DNA of 64,000 bases from the IMG/VR virus record IMGVR_UViG_3300024346_000003; one strand, written 5' to 3'. The notes under the pieces were generated by a model. The model saw nothing but the letters and a program-made list of their open reading frames with translations. It ran no database searches and was not told the origin of the DNA. The position numbers and the translations under genes are program-made. Source of the DNA: a virus. Its lineage: Duplodnaviria > Caudoviricetes. Of the stretch, positions 5,681-55,890 are shown one piece after another; position 1 is the stretch's first letter; each line of letters opens with the position of its first letter.

Positions 5681-7462
5681 TTATCTTAATTCATTGATGT
5701 TAAATGTTGGTACACCATCAACTCTTACATGTCCGTAAAAACGGTTGTTCACAACTTTTTTTGCATATCTCGTCATAATTCCCTTTACTGGTGCAAAGTT
5801 GAACGGGTTATACATTGTAGGTGTAAGTTGCATTGGCACGTATGGTGCGTAGATGTAACCTGTATCTAACAATGATTTTCCTTTATGACCGATAATCATT
5901 GAGTAGAAAGGTGCATATGGGTCACGGTACACTTGGTAACGACCTGACAATGAACCTACTCTTTCAATACCCATGTTGTATTGGTCTTGCTCTGGGTTAG
6001 CATCACTTACGTGGAAGTACTCTAAATCATCCATGATTGCAGATATTTCAGAAGAAATTACGATAAAGTTAGCACCACCTCTAAGGGTTGATTTGTGAAT
6101 TTGTGCTGAAATTTGGTTAACTTTAGTAATTAAAGTTTGATTCCAGTCTTTTTGCGTGTATGGACTAGCAGCTGAAGAAGCTTTTCTCCATCCGTTATAA
6201 TCCCAACGTAATTGCCATGCAGCAGCTTTTCTTAAGTCTCTTAAGATTTCACGGTCAATTTCAGCAGCAACTTGCTCAGAAAGCATAGCTGTTAATTCTG
6301 CCTCAGCATCGATGTTGTGGAATGCACTAACATCTTGAGCTAATTCTGGAGACCATGTAGCTCTTAGTTTTCTTTCTTCTACAGAAACAACAACTTCATC
6401 CAATTTGAATGATACTTCACCCATTTCAGTTTCTAATTCTAATGAATCATAACGTCCCCAAGCGATTGAGAAATCAAGAGCCGTTGTAGTTGTACCAGTA
6501 ACACCAACATAACCATCGTAAGTTGGAGTAGTAACAGCTGGGTGAGTTAAATCTAATTCAACATACATAACACCAACAGCGTCACAGATATCACCATAAG
6601 AAACGATACCTTTACCATATTTTTGTGTTACTAATCTGAATGGAACTGAACCATTAGCAGCAACAACTGCAAAACCATCTTGGTCAAGTAATGTATTGTC
6701 AGAAACAATGATTAATGATGCTAAGAAAGCTTCAGTATCCATTTCGTTTCCGTCTGGACCTGTTAATCTACCAGCTCTAACGTCAGAGAAACCAGAGATT
6801 GCAATAATTGCATTTCTAATTGAACCATCAGTTGCAGTAGGTAGGAAAGAAAAATCAGCAACTGTATTAAAGTTACCATTAGTACCTAAAGTTTTCAATA
6901 CACCATCACCAACTGCGATAGTCAATGTACCTTTAGAGTTATCAAACATACCATCGTTGTAGAAAATATCGTACAAGTTTTTAGCTTGGTATGGAGTTAC
7001 TGTACAACCGTCAACTGGTTGAACACAACTTGGTAATTGGTCACCCATACCTGTGTGTGCAGAGTAAGTAGTACCGTAAGGTGTTGTAGCGTAATTATCA
7101 CCAGCGTTTCCGTTAGCATCAACTCTTGAAGAAGTTTGAGGTACGAAGAAAAACAATTTACCGATTGGCATGTTCATAGCTTGTACAGATACTACATCAT
7201 TAGCTAATAATTTAGAGAAAACTCTTCTTACGATTGGGAAAACTACAGTTTCGAAAGAACCTGAAGACGTAGAGTCTGTAGCTTCAGTTAAAATTGAAGA
7301 AGCTTGGTTCTCATATAACTGAGCAACGTTTTCCTTAATGTGGCCCTTAAGACCTTCCAAGAATCCTAAAGATTCCCATTTAGATTGTGTTTGTCTACGG
7401 ATTTCCTTCATGTGGTTTAATCCGATGTTTCCAACTTGTCCTGAGTTTAAAAATTGTGACAT
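5681..7462 (-). CDS. major capsid protein (T4 gp23-like)
   Basis: KW..LG.LEGL..ENQ N-arm, VVSVQAMNMPIGKLFF, RKLRATWSPELAQD, AEIDREI, YAPYVP, GIMTRYA motifs. Confidence 0.96.
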   Translation of the reverse strand: MSQFLNSGQVGNIGLNHMKEIRRQTQSKWESLGFLEGLKGHIKENVAQLYENQASSILTEATDSTSSGSFETVVFPIVRRVFSKLLANDVVSVQAMNMPIGKLFFFVPQTSSRVDANGNAGDNYATTPYGTTYSAHTGMGDQLPSCVQPVDGCTVTPYQAKNLYDIFYNDGMFDNSKGTLTIAVGDGVLKTLGTNGNFNTVADFSFLPTATDGSIRNAIIAISGFSDVRAGRLTGPDGNEMDTEAFLASLIIVSDNTLLDQDGFAVVAANGSVPFRLVTQKYGKGIVSYGDICDAVGVMYVELDLTHPAVTTPTYDGYVGVTGTTTTALDFSIAWGRYDSLELETEMGEVSFKLDEVVVSVEERKLRATWSPELAQDVSAFHNIDAEAELTAMLSEQVAAEIDREILRDLRKAAAWQLRWDYNGWRKASSAASPYTQKDWNQTLITKVNQISAQIHKSTLRGGANFIVISSEISAIMDDLEYFHVSDANPEQDQYNMGIERVGSLSGRYQVYRDPYAPFYSMIIGHKGKSLLDTGYIYAPYVPMQLTPTMYNPFNFAPVKGIMTRYAKKVVNNRFYGHVRVDGVPTFNINELR

Positions 7463-7495
7463 AATTTTATTTTTTTTTTGTTTTTTTTATTATTA

Positions 7496-8949: not shown

Positions 8950-9648
8950 TTAATCTAATAAAAATTTATTTAATCCATCGATTAATAAATTCTTTTCTAT
9001 TTTAACTGATTCAACGAATGGTTTAGATTCAGCCCTATCTTTAAACATCCAAGAGCCAGGTGTGCTAGGTGCTGTTACAATATCCCAACAAATTATTTCA
9101 AAATCTTCTTGAACAATGTGGTCACCATTAACTTCTCTTAATGAACCAACACCTCTAGATGATACACCAATCATAATATTATTTCTTAAAAGATTTGCAA
9201 CTTCATCACCTTTAGTTGATACAATACCAAGGTTAATATAACCTGGAGTCATTAAGATTTCCATTTTACCCATTAAGGTTTTACCTTCCCACCACGTTTC
9301 AATAATATTATGTGATACTCTATCACCAGCTATAATTGAAGACTCTGGGTGGTCTAATTCACCTATTGCTCTTCTTTCTCTAATTAATTGTTGGTACCTA
9401 TCATTTTCTCTTTTAAGAATTGGTTCTGGATATATCCTACCATTTCTATTTTTAACACTATGTTTTTGTAAGACAACATAAACAACTAGTGGTTCATTGA
9501 TAGTAGGGTGTGAGTCAGAATTCAAACTTTTCATTTCAGTTATAAAAGGTTTGTTTCTAATATCACTAGGCGAAATATAGCCAGCATCAGATTCAACCAT
9601 GAATCCAAAACCAGTCTCACCAGCTTTTAATATTTTAATGTCTGACAT
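8950..9648 (-). CDS. prohead core protease (T4 gp21-like, peptidase S77)
   Basis: NRNGRIYP, AIGELDHP, VSHNI, IGVSSRGVGSL, WDIVTAPSTPG motifs; start moved to MSDIK ATG at 9648. Confidence 0.93.
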   Translation of the reverse strand: MSDIKILKAGETGFGFMVESDAGYISPSDIRNKPFITEMKSLNSDSHPTINEPLVVYVVLQKHSVKNRNGRIYPEPILKRENDRYQQLIRERRAIGELDHPESSIIAGDRVSHNIIETWWEGKTLMGKMEILMTPGYINLGIVSTKGDEVANLLRNNIMIGVSSRGVGSLREVNGDHIVQEDFEIICWDIVTAPSTPGSWMFKDRAESKPFVESVKIEKNLLIDGLNKFLLD

Positions 9649-9712
9649 ATTACTTTTTATTAATAAATATGCCATATAAAACAAAAAACCCCGAACTTAA
9701 TTCGGGGCTTTA

Positions 9713-11729: not shown

Positions 11730-13757
11730 CTATTCTTCCAACATTCTATCAATGTCTTTAATCACATTATTTATATCTTCGTTTATTCTTAAGCTTTTAT
11801 CATAAACTTTAACCCTCTCATTTAATATAACATCATCTTCCACTTTACTTATTGAATTGACTAGATTATTAAAAAGTTTAGTATTTTGTTTTTTATTTTT
11901 AGGTTTAATTTTACCATTATCATCATGCTCGATGATTAAATTACCTTTATTTTTAATAGATTCGGCTGCTGGTTCTGGTGCTTCAACTGCATCTTCAGCT
12001 GGCACTTCTTCCGCTGGCGCTTCTTCACCACCTTCAGCTGGCGCTTCTTCACCTTCAGCTGGCACTTCTTCATCACCAAAATCTAATGCACCGCCACCGA
12101 AGCCGCCGCCACCGCCTCCACCACCAGTAGGTCCACCTTCAGATTCTTCACCACCTTCACCACCTTCACCACCAGATAATGCAGCATCCATATCACCATA
12201 TATAGAATCAACCTTATCAAACATACCTGTATGCTTAATAACTTGACCAGTATTCTCAAGTTCAGCAGCAGCCGCTTTTTCTATTCTTTGCTCAAGTAAA
12301 TCTTGTTTGATTTCATCATCACTCCAACCTAATATTTCTCTATGAGCTCTTGTCATAGACATTGGGGCAAATCCATTACCAGCATCAGACACTGCATCCT
12401 TATATAATGTCATCTTCAACTGTAATTGTTCAATCTTAAGTATTTCAGCTTGAGTTGATGGGTTATTAAGTGTAAGTGTAAAATTATCTAAATCATCCTC
12501 AAAACCTAAAAGGTATAAATGTATTATTGCAATTTTATTTAATTCAGCTAACATCGCTTGTTGGATTCTATTTATTGTTCTAGAAAATCTAACGTCTTGT
12601 AATGATAAATTTTTACCTTCACCTTGAGCTTCATCAAAGTTTAAGAATTGTTTAGGAACTCTTAACGCTGTAAATAATTTTCTTTGTAAATATTGAATAT
12701 CTGCAATTTGGTCTAAGTTTGCCGCACCAGCTAATGTATCAATTGGATTTGGGGCATTCTCATCTCTAACAGGAATAAAGTAATCCTGGTCATTTGCTAA
12801 TGTATTGTATCTTAAATCCACTTGACCTGTTTGTGGGTCAACAATTGGAGTTCTTTTAAATCTATTAGCAATTTCATCAACGTATGCTGGTACATCTTCT
12901 TCATCAATATTACCAACAAATATTTTATATACTCTTCTTTCTGGTGCTCTCGTTACACGATAAACAAGCATCGCATCTTCAGATAATTGTAATTGTTTCC
13001 AGATTCTTCTCGCTTTTTCTAGCATTGAAGTACCATATGGTAATCGTCTATCATCACCTAATAATCTAAAGTGAGCAATTTGCCATGAATTAAATTCAAT
13101 ATCTCTACCTCTCCAGAAGAATTTAATCTTACCAGAAGTATCCTTTGTATCCTCAACATTGATTCTGTTTCTACCACTAATCATTGCTTCGATAATATCA
13201 CCTTCTCTTCTTTCAAGCTCAAAATTAGGTAATTGTCTAGCACTAGTGATACCATAGTTATCATCTATATTTAATAATACAAAATTATCACCGTATTTAC
13301 ATGTATTTCTAGTCCACATCGGTAATGATACGTGAATATCTAATCTATTGAAAAATAAATCTTCTAATACACCTTTAATTCTATCACTATCTGAATAAAC
13401 ATTTAATATCTTACCCTTATCATTTACGGTTGTTGATTCTTCCATAAAAATATCTAAAGATGCAGCTATTTCTGGGTAAAATTCCATACTTTCAAAGTCA
13501 GTATATGAACCAATTCTTGTTGTTTCATAATGGATTGATTGTTGAAATAATTCACCATCAACTTTTCTCCAAACATTTCTTAAATATTTGTTTTGTTGAC
13601 CCTGTAATTTAACAGCATCAAAATCTTCCTTTGATTGAGTCTTAATTAAAACATCATTATTAATTGAATATTTATTAGATTGTGTTTGAGCCTGTGGTCT
13701 AACACCCTCTGGTCCAAATATCGCATTCAATCTTTGAAATACAGTCCTTTTTGCCAT
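11730..13757 (-). CDS. portal protein (T4 gp20-like)
   Basis: YPEIAASLD, HFRL, YGTSMLEKARRIWKQL, EDAMLVYRVTRAPERRVYKIFVGN, EDY-like QDYFIPVR, KLFTALRVP motifs. Confidence 0.96.
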   Translation of the reverse strand: MAKRTVFQRLNAIFGPEGVRPQAQTQSNKYSINNDVLIKTQSKEDFDAVKLQGQQNKYLRNVWRKVDGELFQQSIHYETTRIGSYTDFESMEFYPEIAASLDIFMEESTTVNDKGKILNVYSDSDRIKGVLEDLFFNRLDIHVSLPMWTRNTCKYGDNFVLLNIDDNYGITSARQLPNFELERREGDIIEAMISGRNRINVEDTKDTSGKIKFFWRGRDIEFNSWQIAHFRLLGDDRRLPYGTSMLEKARRIWKQLQLSEDAMLVYRVTRAPERRVYKIFVGNIDEEDVPAYVDEIANRFKRTPIVDPQTGQVDLRYNTLANDQDYFIPVRDENAPNPIDTLAGAANLDQIADIQYLQRKLFTALRVPKQFLNFDEAQGEGKNLSLQDVRFSRTINRIQQAMLAELNKIAIIHLYLLGFEDDLDNFTLTLNNPSTQAEILKIEQLQLKMTLYKDAVSDAGNGFAPMSMTRAHREILGWSDDEIKQDLLEQRIEKAAAAELENTGQVIKHTGMFDKVDSIYGDMDAALSGGEGGEGGEESEGGPTGGGGGGGGFGGGALDFGDEEVPAEGEEAPAEGGEEAPAEEVPAEDAVEAPEPAAESIKNKGNLIIEHDDNGKIKPKNKKQNTKLFNNLVNSISKVEDDVILNERVKVYDKSLRINEDINNVIKDIDRMLEE

Positions 13758-14086: not shown

Positions 14087-15841
14087 TTATTTTAATCCAC
14101 TGAATAACCATAAATATTCACCCTTTGGGTCTTGCATATTTTTTGCAACCTGGGTGTTAAAATTTGGTTTACCAGTATTTGTTTTATTTCTTTGATTTTT
14201 AGGAACAAACCCTGTATTATATGTATCATCAGTAGCTTTATTAGAACCACCAACTTGCCAAGCTGATAATATCGCTTTAGTTTGTTTCTCAAGCTTCTTT
14301 AATTTCTTAAATGATGATTCCAATATCCATAAAGCCATACCTAATGATAGTAAACAATCATCATGATACCCTTCCATGTGGTCAGGTCTACCATTTTTAT
14401 AGATAAATGTCTTCATTTCATTTATAACACGCTTAGATTTAATCTTTATAGTGTTAGTTCTAACTGCAATCTCCAAATGTGATATTAATTGAAGTCTAAC
14501 ACCATTGATATTAAATCCAGCTACCTTTTTACCATTTTCTGTTTTAATTGAATCGTAATGTAAGTTAGGATATTTTAATTCCACAAGTTTTGATGTAGTA
14601 GTATTACCAACACCAACATTATCAACAACCAAATAAGCACTATACTTAGTACCATATACATTAAGTATTTCAGCAAATGTATCTGGTGGTACTTTACCCT
14701 GGAATTCAGCAACCTGTTCCATTGTCGTAAAATCAATGATTTGGAAACATGAAAAGTCAGCCCCATCACCACGAGCAACATCGGCTGCTAATATGTATTG
14801 ATGTTCAGCCTCAGGTTCATTCCAAATCCAAACTAAACCACTATTACCATCATAATACGTATCATCAATATATTTAGGTTTTTCAACATTCTGAGTATCA
14901 TGCATATTGATATACTCATCATCTATTACGTTACCCCCAGAACCTAGGAATGATACGTCAAGCTCTTGTGCAATTTTCTTCTTATCATTGTTCATCCCCT
15001 TACACATATCACGATACCAAGTGGAAGTAGGTTTATAACCTTTCTTAACCATTTCTTCAAATGAATCTAAAGTGAATTCAACTTCAGTAATAATTTCATC
15101 AGCTTTTAACCACTGTAAATCTTTATTATATCTAGGGTCTTGATACCATTTTAATTCAATAACATTGTAGTCATTATCACCCTTCTCAGATTGTTCGTAT
15201 GTTTTATAATACAATGGGTCATAACCATTAGGTGTTGAAATTAATATTGCACCACCCCCAGTACCTAATGATGTAATTGCCGCAGAATATAATTCAGCAC
15301 CATTTACAATAAAGGCTGCCTCATCAAAAATAAGTAATGTTGGGGTATATCCACGAAGTGCATCTGTTGATGTTGCTACCGCAATGATTTTACTACCATT
15401 AGGTAACTCAATCTCAATTTGGGAATCTTTTATAAATATAGATTTCTTTTCTTTCTCATCAGTACCATAGTAGTCTGGACCCCAAACCCATCTAGGTAAT
15501 TGTGAACAATAATCTTTAATACCTTTAGTAAATTTTTTAGCTAAATTTAATTTATTGGCAATTACAATTATAGTTTCTGGATTTTTAGAATCAGCAAATG
15601 CACATTTAATTGCACTATATGCTTGTGTTGTCGTTGAGATACCAGCCTGTCTAGGTTTTGTTACGATATTAAAACGATATTTTTGATAACAATCTACTAT
15701 ATATTGTTGTCTAATGAATAAGTTGAATGGAACAAACCCTTCTTGAGTTTTATCAAATGTTGATAAATACGTTCCTATTGCGTATTTTGGGTCAATCACA
15801 CATTTTGCATATTCATTTAATATTTCACCGCTTGTTAGCAT
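14087..15841 (-). CDS. terL: terminase large subunit (T4 gp17-like)
   Basis: KPRQAGIST Walker A, RGYT...IFDEAAF Walker B, ISTPNG, ADVARGDGAD and HDD nuclease motifs. Confidence 0.96.
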   Translation of the reverse strand: MLTSGEILNEYAKCVIDPKYAIGTYLSTFDKTQEGFVPFNLFIRQQYIVDCYQKYRFNIVTKPRQAGISTTTQAYSAIKCAFADSKNPETIIVIANKLNLAKKFTKGIKDYCSQLPRWVWGPDYYGTDEKEKKSIFIKDSQIEIELPNGSKIIAVATSTDALRGYTPTLLIFDEAAFIVNGAELYSAAITSLGTGGGAILISTPNGYDPLYYKTYEQSEKGDNDYNVIELKWYQDPRYNKDLQWLKADEIITEVEFTLDSFEEMVKKGYKPTSTWYRDMCKGMNNDKKKIAQELDVSFLGSGGNVIDDEYINMHDTQNVEKPKYIDDTYYDGNSGLVWIWNEPEAEHQYILAADVARGDGADFSCFQIIDFTTMEQVAEFQGKVPPDTFAEILNVYGTKYSAYLVVDNVGVGNTTTSKLVELKYPNLHYDSIKTENGKKVAGFNINGVRLQLISHLEIAVRTNTIKIKSKRVINEMKTFIYKNGRPDHMEGYHDDCLLSLGMALWILESSFKKLKKLEKQTKAILSAWQVGGSNKATDDTYNTGFVPKNQRNKTNTGKPNFNTQVAKNMQDPKGEYLWLFSGLK

Positions 15842-15912: not shown

Positions 15913-17052
15913 TTAGAATAAATCCTCTATCTCAAATAAATCATCACCCATTGATTCATTATATTCATCTTCTTTTATTTCTCGTTTTATTTCATTTAAT
16001 AATTCTGAAATAATTTCTTTACCTCTTTTAGTACCCCCTAGTATCTCTCTCATCGTATGAGCATATTCCTTAGGTTCCAATTGTGAAATATCAGCATATA
16101 CATGATGCTTTAAATTAAAATCACCAGCTGGTATCATAGCACAGAATTTACCCCATAAACCAGGACCAATTCTCATATCCCATGGTTCAGCTTGTACAAA
16201 ATCTGATTTGTTAATAACATACTCAGCTATATTTTTTTTATTTGGTAAACCAGGTGCTGATAGAATTTCCATACAACCTTTAACCAATTCATGTATTAAT
16301 ACTGGGAAAACCATTGCTTTAGCATTTAATGTTGTTGGTTTGTTTTTTTCTTTTGAACCAAACTCAACTTCACATTTACCAGCATTTGTTGAACTCTCTA
16401 AAGTTGGCTGCAAATAATACATGTAATCAGCGGCAGTCATCATTTTTTTATAATTGTTAATCAATTTAGGATTCATATTAGTTAATTCAGCATCAGCTAA
16501 ATGATACATATGATTAACTTTTTTTGCAGCACCTTGATTCATTGCATTTACAAATCTTCTTTTATATACACTATCATTTGCATACTCCATTTCATCGTGG
16601 TCATCAAATTCAGTGATGGTTTCTTGGTCAGGTACTAAATTTGTACCATTTAAATCAATATAAGGTGTTAATTCAGCATTTATAATAACTTCTTCTGGTA
16701 TATCGAATTCTTCTCTAACCATTTTAACAGCTAATTCTACTAATTCTTTTTTGTGTTTTTCTTCTAAAGACATTGTATCATTAACTAAAGGCATCATTTC
16801 CATCATTAAAGACATATTATCTATCTCCTCAACATTAAATGCTTTTTTAACTTCATTAACAACATCTTTAAATCTTTCACCAACAATTGCTGTTGCAAAA
16901 TTTCGTTCATTACCAACTGGAAAACAAGGACTTTCACCTAAAGAAGTTTTATTACTTAATAAATCTTCCTCAAGTTTTGGGTGCATTCTTTCTTTTAAAT
17001 CTTTTGGGTAAATAAGACTTTCAGCTAATATGTTTTTAGTTCTTCTACTCAT
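15913..17052 (-). CDS. conserved-looking hypothetical protein, head module
   Basis: 379 aa ORF with VLIHELVKG motif, followed by terminator-like hairpin at ~15880. Confidence 0.7.
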   Translation of the reverse strand: MSRRTKNILAESLIYPKDLKERMHPKLEEDLLSNKTSLGESPCFPVGNERNFATAIVGERFKDVVNEVKKAFNVEEIDNMSLMMEMMPLVNDTMSLEEKHKKELVELAVKMVREEFDIPEEVIINAELTPYIDLNGTNLVPDQETITEFDDHDEMEYANDSVYKRRFVNAMNQGAAKKVNHMYHLADAELTNMNPKLINNYKKMMTAADYMYYLQPTLESSTNAGKCEVEFGSKEKNKPTTLNAKAMVFPVLIHELVKGCMEILSAPGLPNKKNIAEYVINKSDFVQAEPWDMRIGPGLWGKFCAMIPAGDFNLKHHVYADISQLEPKEYAHTMREILGGTKRGKEIISELLNEIKREIKEDEYNESMGDDLFEIEDLF

Positions 17053-17499: not shown

Positions 17500-17898
17500 T
17501 TACTTAACTTTTTTTTCTTTGTTATATTCTAAAACTAAATCACGTTCATAAAGTTTATCATTAACTTCAGCTATGTCTAAACCAAATGAGAACCAAAGTC
17601 TAGATTCTGGATATTCTTCATAACCATCAATATCTTCCCAAGCCAATGCAACAATTTTATCAACCGCATCCCAAACAGCAAACGTATCACTATCTTGAAC
17701 TAAATTGAATTTTATATCGGTACTTAATTTACCAACTGATTTAACAAATTCAGAATGTGGTGGCTCTGGTCTACCAGAAGCTGGAACCGCATCCCAATTA
17801 TCACCATCAACATTATCAATATCAGATGAGAAGAGAAATTCATAAATGAAATCACCTTCCCAACCTTTACCAACTTTATTTATGTAAATTAATTTCAT
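17500..17898 (-). CDS. hypothetical protein
   Basis: 132 aa ORF translationally coupled to neighbours. Confidence 0.7.
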   Translation of the reverse strand: MKLIYINKVGKGWEGDFIYEFLFSSDIDNVDGDNWDAVPASGRPEPPHSEFVKSVGKLSTDIKFNLVQDSDTFAVWDAVDKIVALAWEDIDGYEEYPESRLWFSFGLDIAEVNDKLYERDLVLEYNKEKKVK

Positions 17899-19706
17899 TA
17901 ATAGTCCATTTTAGGTTTTGGTGCATGTGCTGGCTCAGCTTCCCAAATTCTTTTTCTTCTTGGTGAAGGTTGTGCTGGTTTTGTTTCTGGAATTACCACA
18001 GGTTCTTTAACTGGGTTATTCAATGTAATAGAATCTAACATATCTTGCATTTCGTTTAATTTTTCAATTATAACATCGTTATTTGCAAATATACTATTTT
18101 TTTTCAAATTATCCAAAGATTCACTTATTTTAACACATTTATCTTTACCATTTTCAGTACCAGCGTACTTATAACCTTTCCAACATGCTTTACCATCAAC
18201 ACCTTTTATTTTATCTTCACCAACTATTTTAGATACTGGTGTTCTAGACCACATTTTACATGACCAATATTTAGGTGTAGTTCTATCTTTTGCTTGAGCA
18301 CATTTGTGTCTAGCTCTGAATGATTTTCTTCTTTTTGGGTCATCTCTTTTAATTTCCATATTTGGGTCACCAAAATTAACTTTAACCACATTACCTTTTT
18401 TATTTTTAACGTAAACTTTAAATTTCTTAACATCACCCTTTGTCGGTTTACCTAATGTAACTTTTCTACCTTGGTATTCAGCTTCATTAATCCCATTCCC
18501 AACAAATAATTGCGCAATATCACTTTCTGGCGATTCAACTGAACCATGATTATCTTCATATCCAGCTTCAGTATCACCGTCATAACCAAGTTGACCAGTT
18601 AAAAAATGATAAACTTCTTCAATATCATCTTTTGAAGTTGCTGCTAGATTTGAAATCCATTCACCATGGTTTAAAATCTCATTATCAACCATAAACACAT
18701 CCATATTTAATATTTCATGTGTTGCATGTTTTATCGTTTTCAAATTTTGAAATAACATATAATTATTAGATTCAGACTCTTCAGTCATTCTTTCTTGACC
18801 TTCTAAATAATGGTAAATGTGCTCAATATCATGAGTTGCTGTTGCAACATGGTCTAAAGCCCAACCATGACCATTATCTAATAAAGCACTAACTTCATTC
18901 ATATCCATACTCAATAATTCACAAGCATCTTCATATATTGAATAGATATCATTAAAAAACATTCCATTTTTTAATTCTTCACCACCTTGATTATCGTTAT
19001 TTTCATGTACTTCAAAATCATCACCAAATGCGACAACATTATCACTTAATAAATCATCAGACTCCCACATTTGATTTTCAGCACCTGGTGCAAATCTAGC
19101 ATCATTTGCAAAATATGATTTGTCAGCATTACCAGGTTGAAAACCTAAATCACCAGCTTCATCTAAAGGCTCTTCAGTTTCAGAATCAACATCTACTTCA
19201 TCATCACCCATATTTGCTTCTTCATCATCACCAGTATCAACATTAACATCAACATTAACATCTTTACCTTCATCACCAGAAGATTTAATTTTTTTGATTA
19301 TATCTTTTTGGTCTTCTTCATCCATTTCAGCAGTATGAGTCGCTGAAATTACAGAATTAATTGCAAATTTTTCTAAATCAAAATCAGGTTGACCTTTATC
19401 TTCACTATATTTTCTAAGTGTAGTACCTAATTTACCAGCAAGTTGCTGTATATATTTTTCTGGGTCCTCAGTTTCATCAGCTTCAATACCAGCATCGAAA
19501 GGTGTATCATCAAATGGTTTATCATCACCAGGTGCAGCTTCAGGTACCTCAGCATCCAAACCCATATCAGCTTCCTCACCACCAGTTACAGGAGGTGTAG
19601 AAACGTCCAAAGCTGGCGTACTAGGTGCAGCCAGCTTTAGTTTATATTTTACTTCTTCTTCTAGATTATACCCTTCCTCTTCATCAGCGAAAAGACCAGT
19701 AGACAT
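17898..19706 (-). CDS. acidic putative head-associated protein; possibly the -1 frame extension of 19727..20512
   Basis: KKFKVYV..VKVNFGDPNM..RRKSFRARHKC and CWKGY..G...GKDKCVK motifs seen in T4-like virion proteins; frame open upstream to a slippery site. Confidence 0.7.
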   Translation of the reverse strand: MSTGLFADEEEGYNLEEEVKYKLKLAAPSTPALDVSTPPVTGGEEADMGLDAEVPEAAPGDDKPFDDTPFDAGIEADETEDPEKYIQQLAGKLGTTLRKYSEDKGQPDFDLEKFAINSVISATHTAEMDEEDQKDIIKKIKSSGDEGKDVNVDVNVDTGDDEEANMGDDEVDVDSETEEPLDEAGDLGFQPGNADKSYFANDARFAPGAENQMWESDDLLSDNVVAFGDDFEVHENNDNQGGEELKNGMFFNDIYSIYEDACELLSMDMNEVSALLDNGHGWALDHVATATHDIEHIYHYLEGQERMTEESESNNYMLFQNLKTIKHATHEILNMDVFMVDNEILNHGEWISNLAATSKDDIEEVYHFLTGQLGYDGDTEAGYEDNHGSVESPESDIAQLFVGNGINEAEYQGRKVTLGKPTKGDVKKFKVYVKNKKGNVVKVNFGDPNMEIKRDDPKRRKSFRARHKCAQAKDRTTPKYWSCKMWSRTPVSKIVGEDKIKGVDGKACWKGYKYAGTENGKDKCVKISESLDNLKKNSIFANNDVIIEKLNEMQDMLDSITLNNPVKEPVVIPETKPAQPSPRRKRIWEAEPAHAPKPKMDY

Positions 19707-19726
19707 CCCATCTACTTTAGTTTCAA

Positions 19727-20512
19727 TTAAGCTTTTTTTTTTAAAGTATTTAACAATGCTTCTTTTTCAGATTCAGTTAATGAATTTAAAATACCACTTA
19801 CTTTATCAGAAGTATCTTCACCAATAATTGAATCCATTCTAGCCATTGCAGTTTCAATACTAAAACCTTTTTTAGATTCAGGTATATTTATTTCTTTTGG
19901 TGGGTTAGGTAGTTGATTAGGGTCATCTTCATTTCCCATAGTGTAATCAACATCATCTAACATTTCATCGATAGCCATTTCATTTTCAGATAATTTAACA
20001 GCTTCAAATTCATCATCAGCATCTTTGTTAGCAAGATTATCACCAAATTGACCTTCTTCCTTACCTTCTTTAGAATCGTAAGATAATTTTTCACCAGATT
20101 TATCTAAAATATCTTTAGATGCATCATTTTCAGCTAACAAATTGTCATCTACAAATGCATTGTAGCTACTAATTTTACCATGAGCTTCATTTAAACTCAT
20201 TAATTTTAAATTCAAATGTTTAATAGCTTTTGCGTATGATGGGTATACTTCAGATGTCTTATTCATCAAACCACCAATGTAATTGAAATCTTCAGTTACT
20301 AAATTTGATTGTTTGTCAGTTATTTTAATAAAATAATTGTGACCTTCTCTAACCACACCATAAACCTTACCATCAGGTCCTAATTTAGTCAATTCAACAA
20401 CAGAATTTTTAACGTCTTCATTTAATTGGGATTGACCCATTAATTCTCGCATTCTGTTAAGCTTATCATTACCTTTTAACCCTGTAGGTTTAACTATAAA
20501 TGGATTCTTCAT
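19727..20512 (-). CDS. hypothetical head-region protein ending in TTTAAAAAAAAAA slippery run
   Basis: 261 aa ORF; many LxE motifs. Confidence 0.75.
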   Translation of the reverse strand: MKNPFIVKPTGLKGNDKLNRMRELMGQSQLNEDVKNSVVELTKLGPDGKVYGVVREGHNYFIKITDKQSNLVTEDFNYIGGLMNKTSEVYPSYAKAIKHLNLKLMSLNEAHGKISSYNAFVDDNLLAENDASKDILDKSGEKLSYDSKEGKEEGQFGDNLANKDADDEFEAVKLSENEMAIDEMLDDVDYTMGNEDDPNQLPNPPKEINIPESKKGFSIETAMARMDSIIGEDTSDKVSGILNSLTESEKEALLNTLKKKA

Positions 20513-20538
20513 TTTATATTGTTTTTTTAATTTTTTAT

Positions 20539-20796
20539 TTATAAGCTAATTGACCCCAAATATGGGCTACCATTAGTGACATCTTTATTAACACCAAGTA
20601 CATAACAACCAACACCACCAGATAGTGTATTAATACCTATGAATATACTAGAACTACTACCCATATCAATGCTATACCCATTAACAGTAATGGTGCAACC
20701 TGTTGGTCCACCATATATTTCATTATAAGTGTATGCTGTTAAGTTAGCATCAGCAATTGTATGACATACTGCACTTACTTCATTTATTTTTGCCAT
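20539..20796 (-). CDS. small hypothetical (structural-like) protein
   Basis: 85 aa ORF, TATTTATA upstream at 20811. Confidence 0.6.
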   Translation of the reverse strand: MAKINEVSAVCHTIADANLTAYTYNEIYGGPTGCTITVNGYSIDMGSSSSIFIGINTLSGGVGCYVLGVNKDVTNGSPYLGSISL

Positions 20797-55439: not shown

Positions 55440-55526
55440 ATTTGTTATTCAAAGAACTTTAACAAAGATAAGTAATTTATTTTAAACTACCAAATCTTTT
55501 TGCAATTATTTTTAATTTTTTTTTTG

Positions 55527-55601
55527 TAGTCAAAATAGGATTCGAACCTATGTAACGATGTCTCTAATAGGACATCTGCTTTGCCACTCGGCCACTTGAC
55601 T
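55527..55601 (-). ncRNA. tRNA-like RNA B with non-canonical 8-nt anticodon loop
   Basis: AGTCAAG/TTTGACT acceptor, GATGTC-CTATTAGA-GACATC arm, ATAGG-TTCGAAT-CCTAT. Confidence 0.65.
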
Positions 55602-55769: not shown

Positions 55770-55890
55770 TAGTCAGGACAGGATTCGAACCTGTATCAAC
55801 AGAATGTGTAACTACCTGTTATATTAAGCATTGTAGATTCGAACCACTCACTCTCTAGGCCTGTTGACTTACCAATTTGTCCACCTGACT
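55770..55890 (-). ncRNA. tRNA-like RNA C with 58-nt insert containing a second T-loop
   Basis: AGTCAGG/CCTGACT, GAC/GTC D-arm, AACAG/CTGTT stem enclosing GTGG-TTCGAAT-CTAC. Confidence 0.7.

Follow-up and report, generated by a model that had tools for sequence, protein, structure and literature searches.

Poly-A slippage is already known as a means by which a single gene yields two products in a set ratio. In Citrobacter rodentium tssM1 and Yersinia pseudotuberculosis tssM3 it takes the form of transcriptional frameshifting (Gueguen et al. 2014, PMC4256274), with the A11 run of tssM1 yielding RNAs that carry 10–15 As, and both length variants, as well as the ratio between them, are needed (PMC4256274). 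In Thermus thermophilus dnaX, tau and gamma are produced via slippage of RNA polymerase on a 9-base homopolymer; the RNA–DNA hybrid within the polymerase spans 9–10 bp, and slippage by bacterial RNA polymerase is efficient from 9 A/T (PMC5009743). In the T4 head, internal proteins, Alt, and core proteins carry capsid-targeting propeptides that are cut by the protease gp21 (PMC5694885, PMC3012670). Here, we describe a locus in a 64,000-nt stretch of viral DNA (Caudoviricetes; IMG/VR record IMGVR_UViG_3300024346_000003; hereafter, the window), part of the genome of an uncultured T4-like phage, where two adjacent open reading frames (ORFs), P1 and P2, are very probably joined by recoding of some kind at a run of ten As (A10), judging from comparison with their relatives. 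Full-text literature searches, together with the Atkins 2016 review, returned no description of a slip site for the P1/P2 family or for head-region genes of T4-like phages.

The A10 run in the window and in related phages

P1 (19727..20512, minus strand; 261 aa) and P2 (17898..19706, minus strand; 602 aa) are arranged as reported in a preliminary description of the sequence, with P2 in the −1 frame of P1. The run (19733..19742, minus strand) lies at the end of P1, preceded by AAT ACT and by TTT at 19743–19745, and reads TT[A AAA AAA AAA] GCT TAA in frame 0, after which the same frame continues TTG AAA CTA AAG TAG and then ATG GGA TGT CTA CTG G. The frame-0 stop TAA (19727..19729) falls one codon, or 3 nt, past the run and overlaps the Leu codon TTA of the −1 frame. 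That frame, as the preliminary description had also stated, passes through the run into P2 free of stops: its final upstream stop is at 19767–19769 and, starting at 19766, it stays open as far as the ATG at 19706, so any shift is confined to a 37-nt stretch that includes the run. The −1 frame stays open for 609 codons and the +1 frame is shut within 5. Nine −1-frame codons (19707..19733), AGC TTA ATT GAA ACT AAA GTA GAT GGG (SLIETKVDG), bridge the run and the ATG, giving a predicted transframe product of 260 + 9 + 602 = 871 aa with the junction ..LKKK|SLIETKVDGMSTG.. and two predicted tryptic peptides exclusive to the fusion, SLIETK and VDGMSTGLFADEEEGYNLEEEVK. Across the window, which has a G+C content of 30%, there are four runs of ten; three are intergenic, and the run at the P1/P2 junction is the sole sense-strand A-run of at least ten inside an ORF of at least 70 aa.

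In viral and metagenome contigs, scans recovered 105 loci encoding the P1 N-terminal domain (the metagenome scan alone gave 437 relatives, of which 80 were kept). When each ORF was followed to its end, an A-run immediately preceded the stop at 92 loci, corresponding to 65 distinct junctions. Conservation of the run and of the −1 register in homologous phages had been proposed beforehand as a test of the fusion, and both are kept: the run is A10 in 61 junctions, A9 in three, and A12 in one, and the register is −1 in all but one. Past the run, the −1 frame continues for up to ~760 codons (350–760 where the contig reaches its stop) and the +1 frame for at most 5, with a frame-0 stop 2–6 nt past the run in nearly all relatives. 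In a phylogeny of the leader domain, every major clade contains A10 junctions in the −1 register, and deviants are tips or small clades—A11, in frame, in L024/L025 and at the first site of L026, two alleles on separate terminal branches; and A9, in the +1 register, in L075, a sister of the A10 locus L079. Two further variants, with A9 and A12 (L042, L012), preserve the −1 register through compensating changes. One metagenome contig (L050), the sole relative of its kind, carries a P1 homologue with an early stop (..VDEILE*) and no run nearby, which may represent a nonsense allele or an assembly error.

Homopolymers are error-prone, and A11 appears in the assemblies of two relatives; accordingly, one might ask whether the true run in the window is A11 within a single continuous ORF. 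We give this explanation almost no credence: dozens of independent, mostly short-read assemblies give A10, contigs of the same phage from two further studies do so as well, and the register is retained in the compensated A9 and A12 variants. In a check of other lake samples with Logan contigs, the run was spanned gap-free by contigs of two independent lake metagenomes (X2, 6.7 kb at depth 15; X8, 1 kb), showing that A10 is not an error specific to the source assembly. Substitutions in contigs near the run comprised GGG to GGA, synonymous in the −1 frame, and ATT to ACT, which changes LIE to LTE. Coverage in a possible RNA run (X20) was limited to 18441–18609, outside the slip site. A related explanation places the length change in the genome itself, with replication slippage toggling A10 and A11 as in a contingency locus and the fusion made only from A11 genomes. 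Such a switch would account for the in-frame A11 alleles on two separate terminal branches and for the A9 allele of L075 beside its A10 sister, but A10 is the assembled consensus in 61/65 junctions from many samples, as well as in three independent assemblies of the window phage, and A10 genomes would be defective without recoding if the P2 modules matter. No within-sample length polymorphism was seen in the contigs examined, although contigs hide minor variants. On balance, a contingency locus is highly improbable.

Codon usage at the run bears on a simpler alternative, namely that P1 and P2 are separate genes, that P2 starts at ATG 19706, and that the run encodes a conserved KKK C-terminus in an A-rich genome. 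This account is helped by the in-frame ATG of the window lineage and by the preference for AAA among Lys codons (74%) in a genome of 30% G+C, but conservation of the run is at the level of bases, holding through different codon phases and amino-acid contexts. Of the Lys codons in the family's genes, 26% are AAG, yet all 65 runs lack it. In the 60 junctions where the run starts at a third codon position, the codon contributing the first A is TTA, TCA, GTA, CTA, GGA, or ATA—always A-ending, though the A-ending share of those codon families is only 15–61%—and in the other five the run begins a codon and takes its tenth A from the next one. Elsewhere, all three codons of KKK are AAA in 7 of 43 cases, against 17.7 expected. 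These codon statistics indicate that selection acts on the bases of the run rather than on Lys-Lys-Lys.

The downstream side of the junction is equally hard to reconcile with separate genes. Most lineages have no start codon before the conserved domain: in 33 of 54 junctions, the stretch from the run to the conserved KYKLKL motif is free of ATG, GTG, and TTG. The Met of the window (..DGMSTGLF..) is a conserved internal residue in one lineage that is replaced by K, E, or I in other relatives. The 15 nt upstream of the P2 ATG (−15..−1) contain 6 G/C, against a mean of 1.9 ± 1.4, the highest value and hence the least start-like context among 69 ORFs of the window, which agrees with an earlier remark that this ATG is set in a context unlike that of other starts. 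Among 11 distinct relatives, variable columns in the bridge upstream of the ATG number 3, 3, and 7 at −1-frame codon positions 1, 2, and 3, a pattern indicating that the bridge evolves as coding sequence in the −1 frame. Separate expression of two unlinked ORFs is thus very unlikely. Moreover, the relative P0029, whose DNA carries A11, encodes the predicted junction peptide in frame (..ALKKKSLTETKADGMSTGLF..), and in distant relatives (P0182/L112 and others) the leader is joined straight to the P2 domain and the run is absent; together, these show that the fusion is a real architecture of the family. The two products envisaged in the preliminary description, of 261 aa and ~870 aa, are thereby supported by comparative evidence.

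Possible transcriptional and ribosomal routes to the fusion

Under the mechanism that we propose, standard decoding would end at the TAA to give the 261-aa leader protein, and in a fraction of expression events the register would move by −1 within the run, so that translation would proceed through KKK-SLIETKVDG into the 602-aa ORF and yield the fusion of ~871 aa. The shift may well be mainly transcriptional: the host RNA polymerase would add a non-templated A on the T10 template, producing an A11 mRNA, and ribosomal slipping on A_AAA_AAA might add to this. A purely ribosomal alternative would instead have tandem tRNA-Lys slip on an A_AAA_AAA within the run of an unedited A10 mRNA, as in programmed −1 frameshifting. 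Because the protein would be identical whether the mRNA gained an A or the ribosome slipped by −1, the sequence does not by itself decide between the two. The locus does combine three features of a programmed transcriptional slippage site: a run of at least ~9 in coding sequence, a layout of short and long frames, and conservation beyond codon bias. It also contains the heptamer of a −1 ribosomal frameshift, given that an in-phase A_AAA_AAA is present in both observed phases of the run.

Signals other than the run were few. The heptamer named in the preliminary description, T_TTA_AAA, did not hold up across relatives: the bases preceding the run vary (TTA, CTA, GTA, TCA, GGA, ATA, or a run that starts a codon), and the signal is therefore the run itself. 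The hairpin that it described, AGTAGA-TGGGATG-TCTACT (19698..19716, minus strand; stem 19711–19716/19698–19703, with the ATG in the 7-nt loop), is present as stated, but a role as stimulator is not borne out, as downstream sequence differs by lineage and the folding z-score is not significant. The stem lies 16 nt from the slip site, against the 5–9 nt and the conservation of stimulators in canonical −1 ribosomal frameshifting. When the 60 nt downstream were folded, the mean z was −1.1 over 64 junctions (−0.96 in the window) with no conserved structure, and sequence past the stop is wholly different between lineages; the 45 nt upstream gave a mean z of −0.6. A Shine-Dalgarno-like GGAGG upstream occurs only in some lineages, where a Glu codon happens to be GAG, and is not conserved.

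Several observations lead us to favour transcriptional slippage over ribosomal −1 frameshifting. First, run length stays fixed at ten, matching the RNA–DNA hybrid, with even the wobble base of the preceding codon retained, though seven As suffice for the ribosome. Second, A_AAA_AAG, which is shiftier and mutationally safer, is used in 0/65 junctions. Third, there is no conserved stimulator, either as structure downstream or as a Shine-Dalgarno-like element upstream. Fourth, relatives whose modules are in frame (L111, L110, L079/L071, and L094/L097) retain an A10 or A11 at this boundary, and the two alternative frames both close within 1–5 codons; a process able to insert as well as delete bases accounts for use of the run in both registers and fits these relatives better than a −1-only event. 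Fifth, tssM1, the nearest parallel that has been studied, likewise has a poly-A run ahead of a stop with no further signal, and slippage there was demonstrated in RNA. T4-like phages transcribe their late genes with the host core polymerase, which places the enzyme at this locus in the same class as that responsible for slippage in tssM1 and Thermus. The purely ribosomal alternative is nonetheless possible, if somewhat doubtful: −1 is the shift needed in all but one out-of-frame junction, ribosomal shifting and sliding on A-runs are documented, and some tailed-phage frameshifts function without stimulators (PMC5009743).

Four points temper both the case for recoding and the preference for a transcriptional origin. 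Every line that supports recoding is comparative. Ten As form two overlapping A_AAA_AAA heptamers, a legitimate ribosomal −1 site, such that run length does not exclude ribosomal slipping. The few assemblies with A11 or A9 alleles indicate that length changes also occur at the DNA level. Finally, the Met conserved in the window lineage (..DGMSTG..) could permit some independent initiation of P2.

Two further decoding routes were considered and rejected. Stop-codon readthrough or reassignment is ruled out because the two ORFs do not share a frame and frame 0 runs into a TAG five codons past the TAA. The second concerns a tRNA-like gene at 55527–55601 (minus strand; Rfam tRNA, 43 bits), in which the anticodon stem GATGTC/GACATC encloses an 8-nt loop, CTATTAGA, that ARAGORN reads as the 4-base anticodon 'atta', and which is directly followed by an A10 run at 55516–55525; it may represent a suppressor-like tRNA of ochre or quadruplet type, or else a decayed gene. 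As a cause of the fusion it is ruled out, since quadruplet decoding of TAAT enters a frame closed at once by TGA. Near it, at 55770–55890 (minus strand), is a fourth tRNA of 121 nt (Rfam, 50 bits) that ARAGORN missed and that probably holds an insertion or intron.

Head-gene context, putative protease motifs, and variable modules

P1 consists of a conserved N-terminal leader domain (residues 1–130), an acidic linker, and a C-terminal helix ending ..LKKKA. Searches of Pfam, PHROG, and PDB sequence profiles returned no match for it; with its structural model (predicted local distance difference test, pLDDT, 63), Foldseek gave no hit against PDB at E ≤ 0.001 and only uncharacterised myovirus proteins in BFVD, and the ESM Atlas returned only unnamed viral clusters. 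A tblastn search of 50,697 phage records likewise gave zero matches, and no cultured phage with P1 was found. A profile of the leader domain, by comparison, matches 1051 cluster representatives (E ≤ 1e-3; clusters at 50% identity), nearly always at the N-terminus, and KKK occurs within the last nine residues in 102 of the best 144 of these (71%). The consensus of a T4 late promoter, TATAAATA, lies 24 nt upstream of the P1 ATG (20536..20543, minus strand), which is weak evidence; over the A/T-rich window the motif is not enriched (20 found vs 20.8 expected).

P2 is very acidic. Its most conserved core (residues ~60–140; 19287..19529, minus strand) has three predicted helices between residues 82 and 144 in a model of low confidence (N-terminal domain; pLDDT 55, too poor for a fold search). 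In Pfam and PHROGs the only match was phrog_7595, of unknown function, and no fold or family match was obtained for P2 as a whole. The phrog_7595 region is a Lys/Arg-rich basic domain with two conserved Cys (residues 406–486; 18249..18491, minus strand), found as a small stand-alone gene in Pelagibacter, Roseobacter, Flavobacterium, and Methylophilales phages and also in Nitrosopumilaceae spindle-shaped viruses. Read depth over this domain is several-fold above its flanks in lake metagenomes because other organisms carry it.

The genes for thyA and accessory functions precede P1 and P2, and three ORFs further downstream comes the large terminase gene, TerL (14087–15841), which is followed by a T4-type portal gene (gp20 homologue; 11730–13757), a T4 gp21-like prohead protease (8950..9684; phrog_207, 1.9e-39; BLASTP against T4 gp21, 2e-20), and a gp23-like major capsid protein (5681–7462; BLASTP against T4 gp23, 6e-28), all on the minus strand. 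An acidic 449-aa scaffold candidate is also encoded on this strand among the head genes downstream. The order thyA .. P1-P2 .. TerL .. portal is common to relatives, and the site is not between tail tube and tape-measure genes, in keeping with its initial placement outside the tail-chaperone context. Adjoining the start of the major capsid protein gene upstream, an A8-C-A10 stretch (7470–7488, in minus-strand sense) is intergenic and is not a recoding site.

The T4 protease gp21 cleaves after [L/I]-x-E. In the window, the first residues past the slip include L-I-E (19722..19730, minus strand), a putative motif of this type, and in nearly all 65 junctions [L/I/V]-x-E follows directly after KKK-x in the −1 frame (LIE, LTE, INE, LKE, LAE, VTE, ITE, IAE, LSE, or LNE), or 5–8 residues later in junctions with an insertion. 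The major capsid protein of the window phage has ..ILTE|ATD.. aligned where T4 gp23 has ..FLTE|AEI.. (T4 head-protein processing is reviewed in PMC5694885). P1 itself contains 8 [L/I]-x-E motifs where 3.6 ± 1.6 would be expected, and four occupy conserved columns (30–32, 107–109, 126–128, and 174–176), although such motifs do not of themselves prove cleavage. The residues before the basic domain are INE|AEY in the window, PLEE|AEF in Pelagibacter phage HTVC008M, and ELDE|GEY in Flavobacterium phage immuto. A separate 379-aa ORF directly upstream of TerL (15913–17052, minus strand), without a family match, has the strongest enrichment among head-region ORFs, with 14 [L/I]-x-E motifs against 6.6 ± 2.1 expected, and may be another substrate of the protease.

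The protease motifs, the adjacency to head genes, and the acidic, low-complexity make-up suggest that P1 and P2 are core or internal head proteins. In the model that we tentatively advance, the leader would carry the fusion into a T4-type prohead core, where the gp21-like protease, as a trans-acting partner, would cut at the L-x-E just past the junction and free acidic and basic cargo inside the head. Delivery and release of this kind, resembling that of Gag-Pol, is a reasonable possibility that falls short of probable. Several points weigh against this model. The proposed function draws on motif and context only, and neither P1 nor P2 matched a known fold or family. The frame-0 stop that overlaps L-x-E (NTA+R) places its own constraint on the hydrophobic residue, and the Glu might be part of a conserved ETKYKLKL motif instead of a cleavage site. 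In relatives with a second slip site, the motif does not always adjoin it (REVSK.. in L079).

The modules after the leader differ in both composition and arrangement. A single frame covers the leader and the P2 N-terminal domain in L026, L071, and L079, and a second A10 (..HLKKK..) leads by −1 into another module that ends in the basic domain; this module and the basic domain are stand-alone genes in immuto and HTVC008M. The 753-aa ORF of a distant relative (L110:638-2899; P0135) contains an in-frame A11 at residue 254 and an A10 at residue 417, both with stops within 1–3 codons in the two other frames, and the gene could encode three nested products. It is conceivable, though in our view unlikely in its full form, that poly-A runs act as evolvable rheostats at the module boundaries of a head-packaged polyprotein. 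Each boundary would pair an A10 site with a prohead-protease site, one-base changes (A10 to A11 and back, or a shift in phase) would flip it between mostly stopping and mostly continuing, and start-less cargo modules, some of them stand-alone elsewhere, would ride on a common leader into the capsid in Gag-Pol fashion, at ratios set by polymerase slippage.

These features matter for annotation as well as for biology. Gene callers split or shorten family members, and the 602-aa gene is annotated as starting at an internal Met; as the downstream module is start-less in most relatives, its expression is invisible to standard annotation. The leader family is very large, coming from uncultured freshwater and marine T4-like and giant phages, and its size and frequent KKK ending mean that the event may be among the commoner recoding events in aquatic viromes. 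Its members form a natural series of one site—out of frame (A9, A10, A12), in frame (A10, A11), and absent—that could serve for studies of how such ratios are set, and the locus suggests a testable route by which phages could load low-copy cargo into heads. Of these features, the use of both registers and the coupling of slip site and putative protease motif deserve testing.

Comparison with described recoding and head-processing systems

The closest likeness is to tssM1 and tssM3, where a premature stop likewise comes straight after poly-A (A11), the next domain is in a different frame and has no start of its own, and no Shine-Dalgarno-like element or structure is nearby. Those are bacterial secretion-system genes whose mechanism was shown by RNA mass spectrometry, whereas the window holds a candidate site, an A10 in a phage late gene; in addition, the site in the P1/P2 family recurs at several module boundaries and in both registers. 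Thermus dnaX shares a homopolymer of about the length of the RNA–DNA hybrid, alternative-frame stops close by, and long and short products, in a set ratio in Thermus. There, the long product is in frame and slippage truncates it, as would apply to the relatives L111, L110, and L079; in the window the layout is the opposite, and slippage would extend the product.

With E. coli dnaX, IS3-family elements, and retroviral Gag-Pol, the locus has in common the −1 register and the pairing of a short product with a C-terminally extended fusion, abundant and rarer, respectively. Should the head model hold, the likeness to Gag-Pol would go further, with a structural leader taking cargo into the capsid and a viral protease freeing it. 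The P1/P2 family departs from all three: apart from the run, no heptamer phase is conserved; A_AAA_AAG does not occur; and a stimulatory stem-loop, pseudoknot, or Shine-Dalgarno-like element is lacking. The lambda G/GT tail chaperone, T7 10A/10B, and the major head protein of Lactobacillus phage A2 (PMC5009743) resemble it as late or structural phage modules that make two related products, at a fixed ratio in those phages, but the P1/P2 family differs in gene and in position, upstream of the large terminase, and the extension in the window is far longer (611 aa), with a poly-A run as the signal.

Finally, the internal and core proteins of T4 offer a parallel for the proposed destination of the fusion: the window phage encodes gp21, gp23, and gp20 homologues, and P1 and P2 are acidic or basic, of low complexity, and rich in conserved [L/I]-x-E, a candidate cleavage motif like that of the major capsid protein maturation site. 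They share no sequence or fold similarity with the T4 proteins, and where T4 uses separate genes, the P1/P2 family would deliver its modules as a slip-joined polyprotein.

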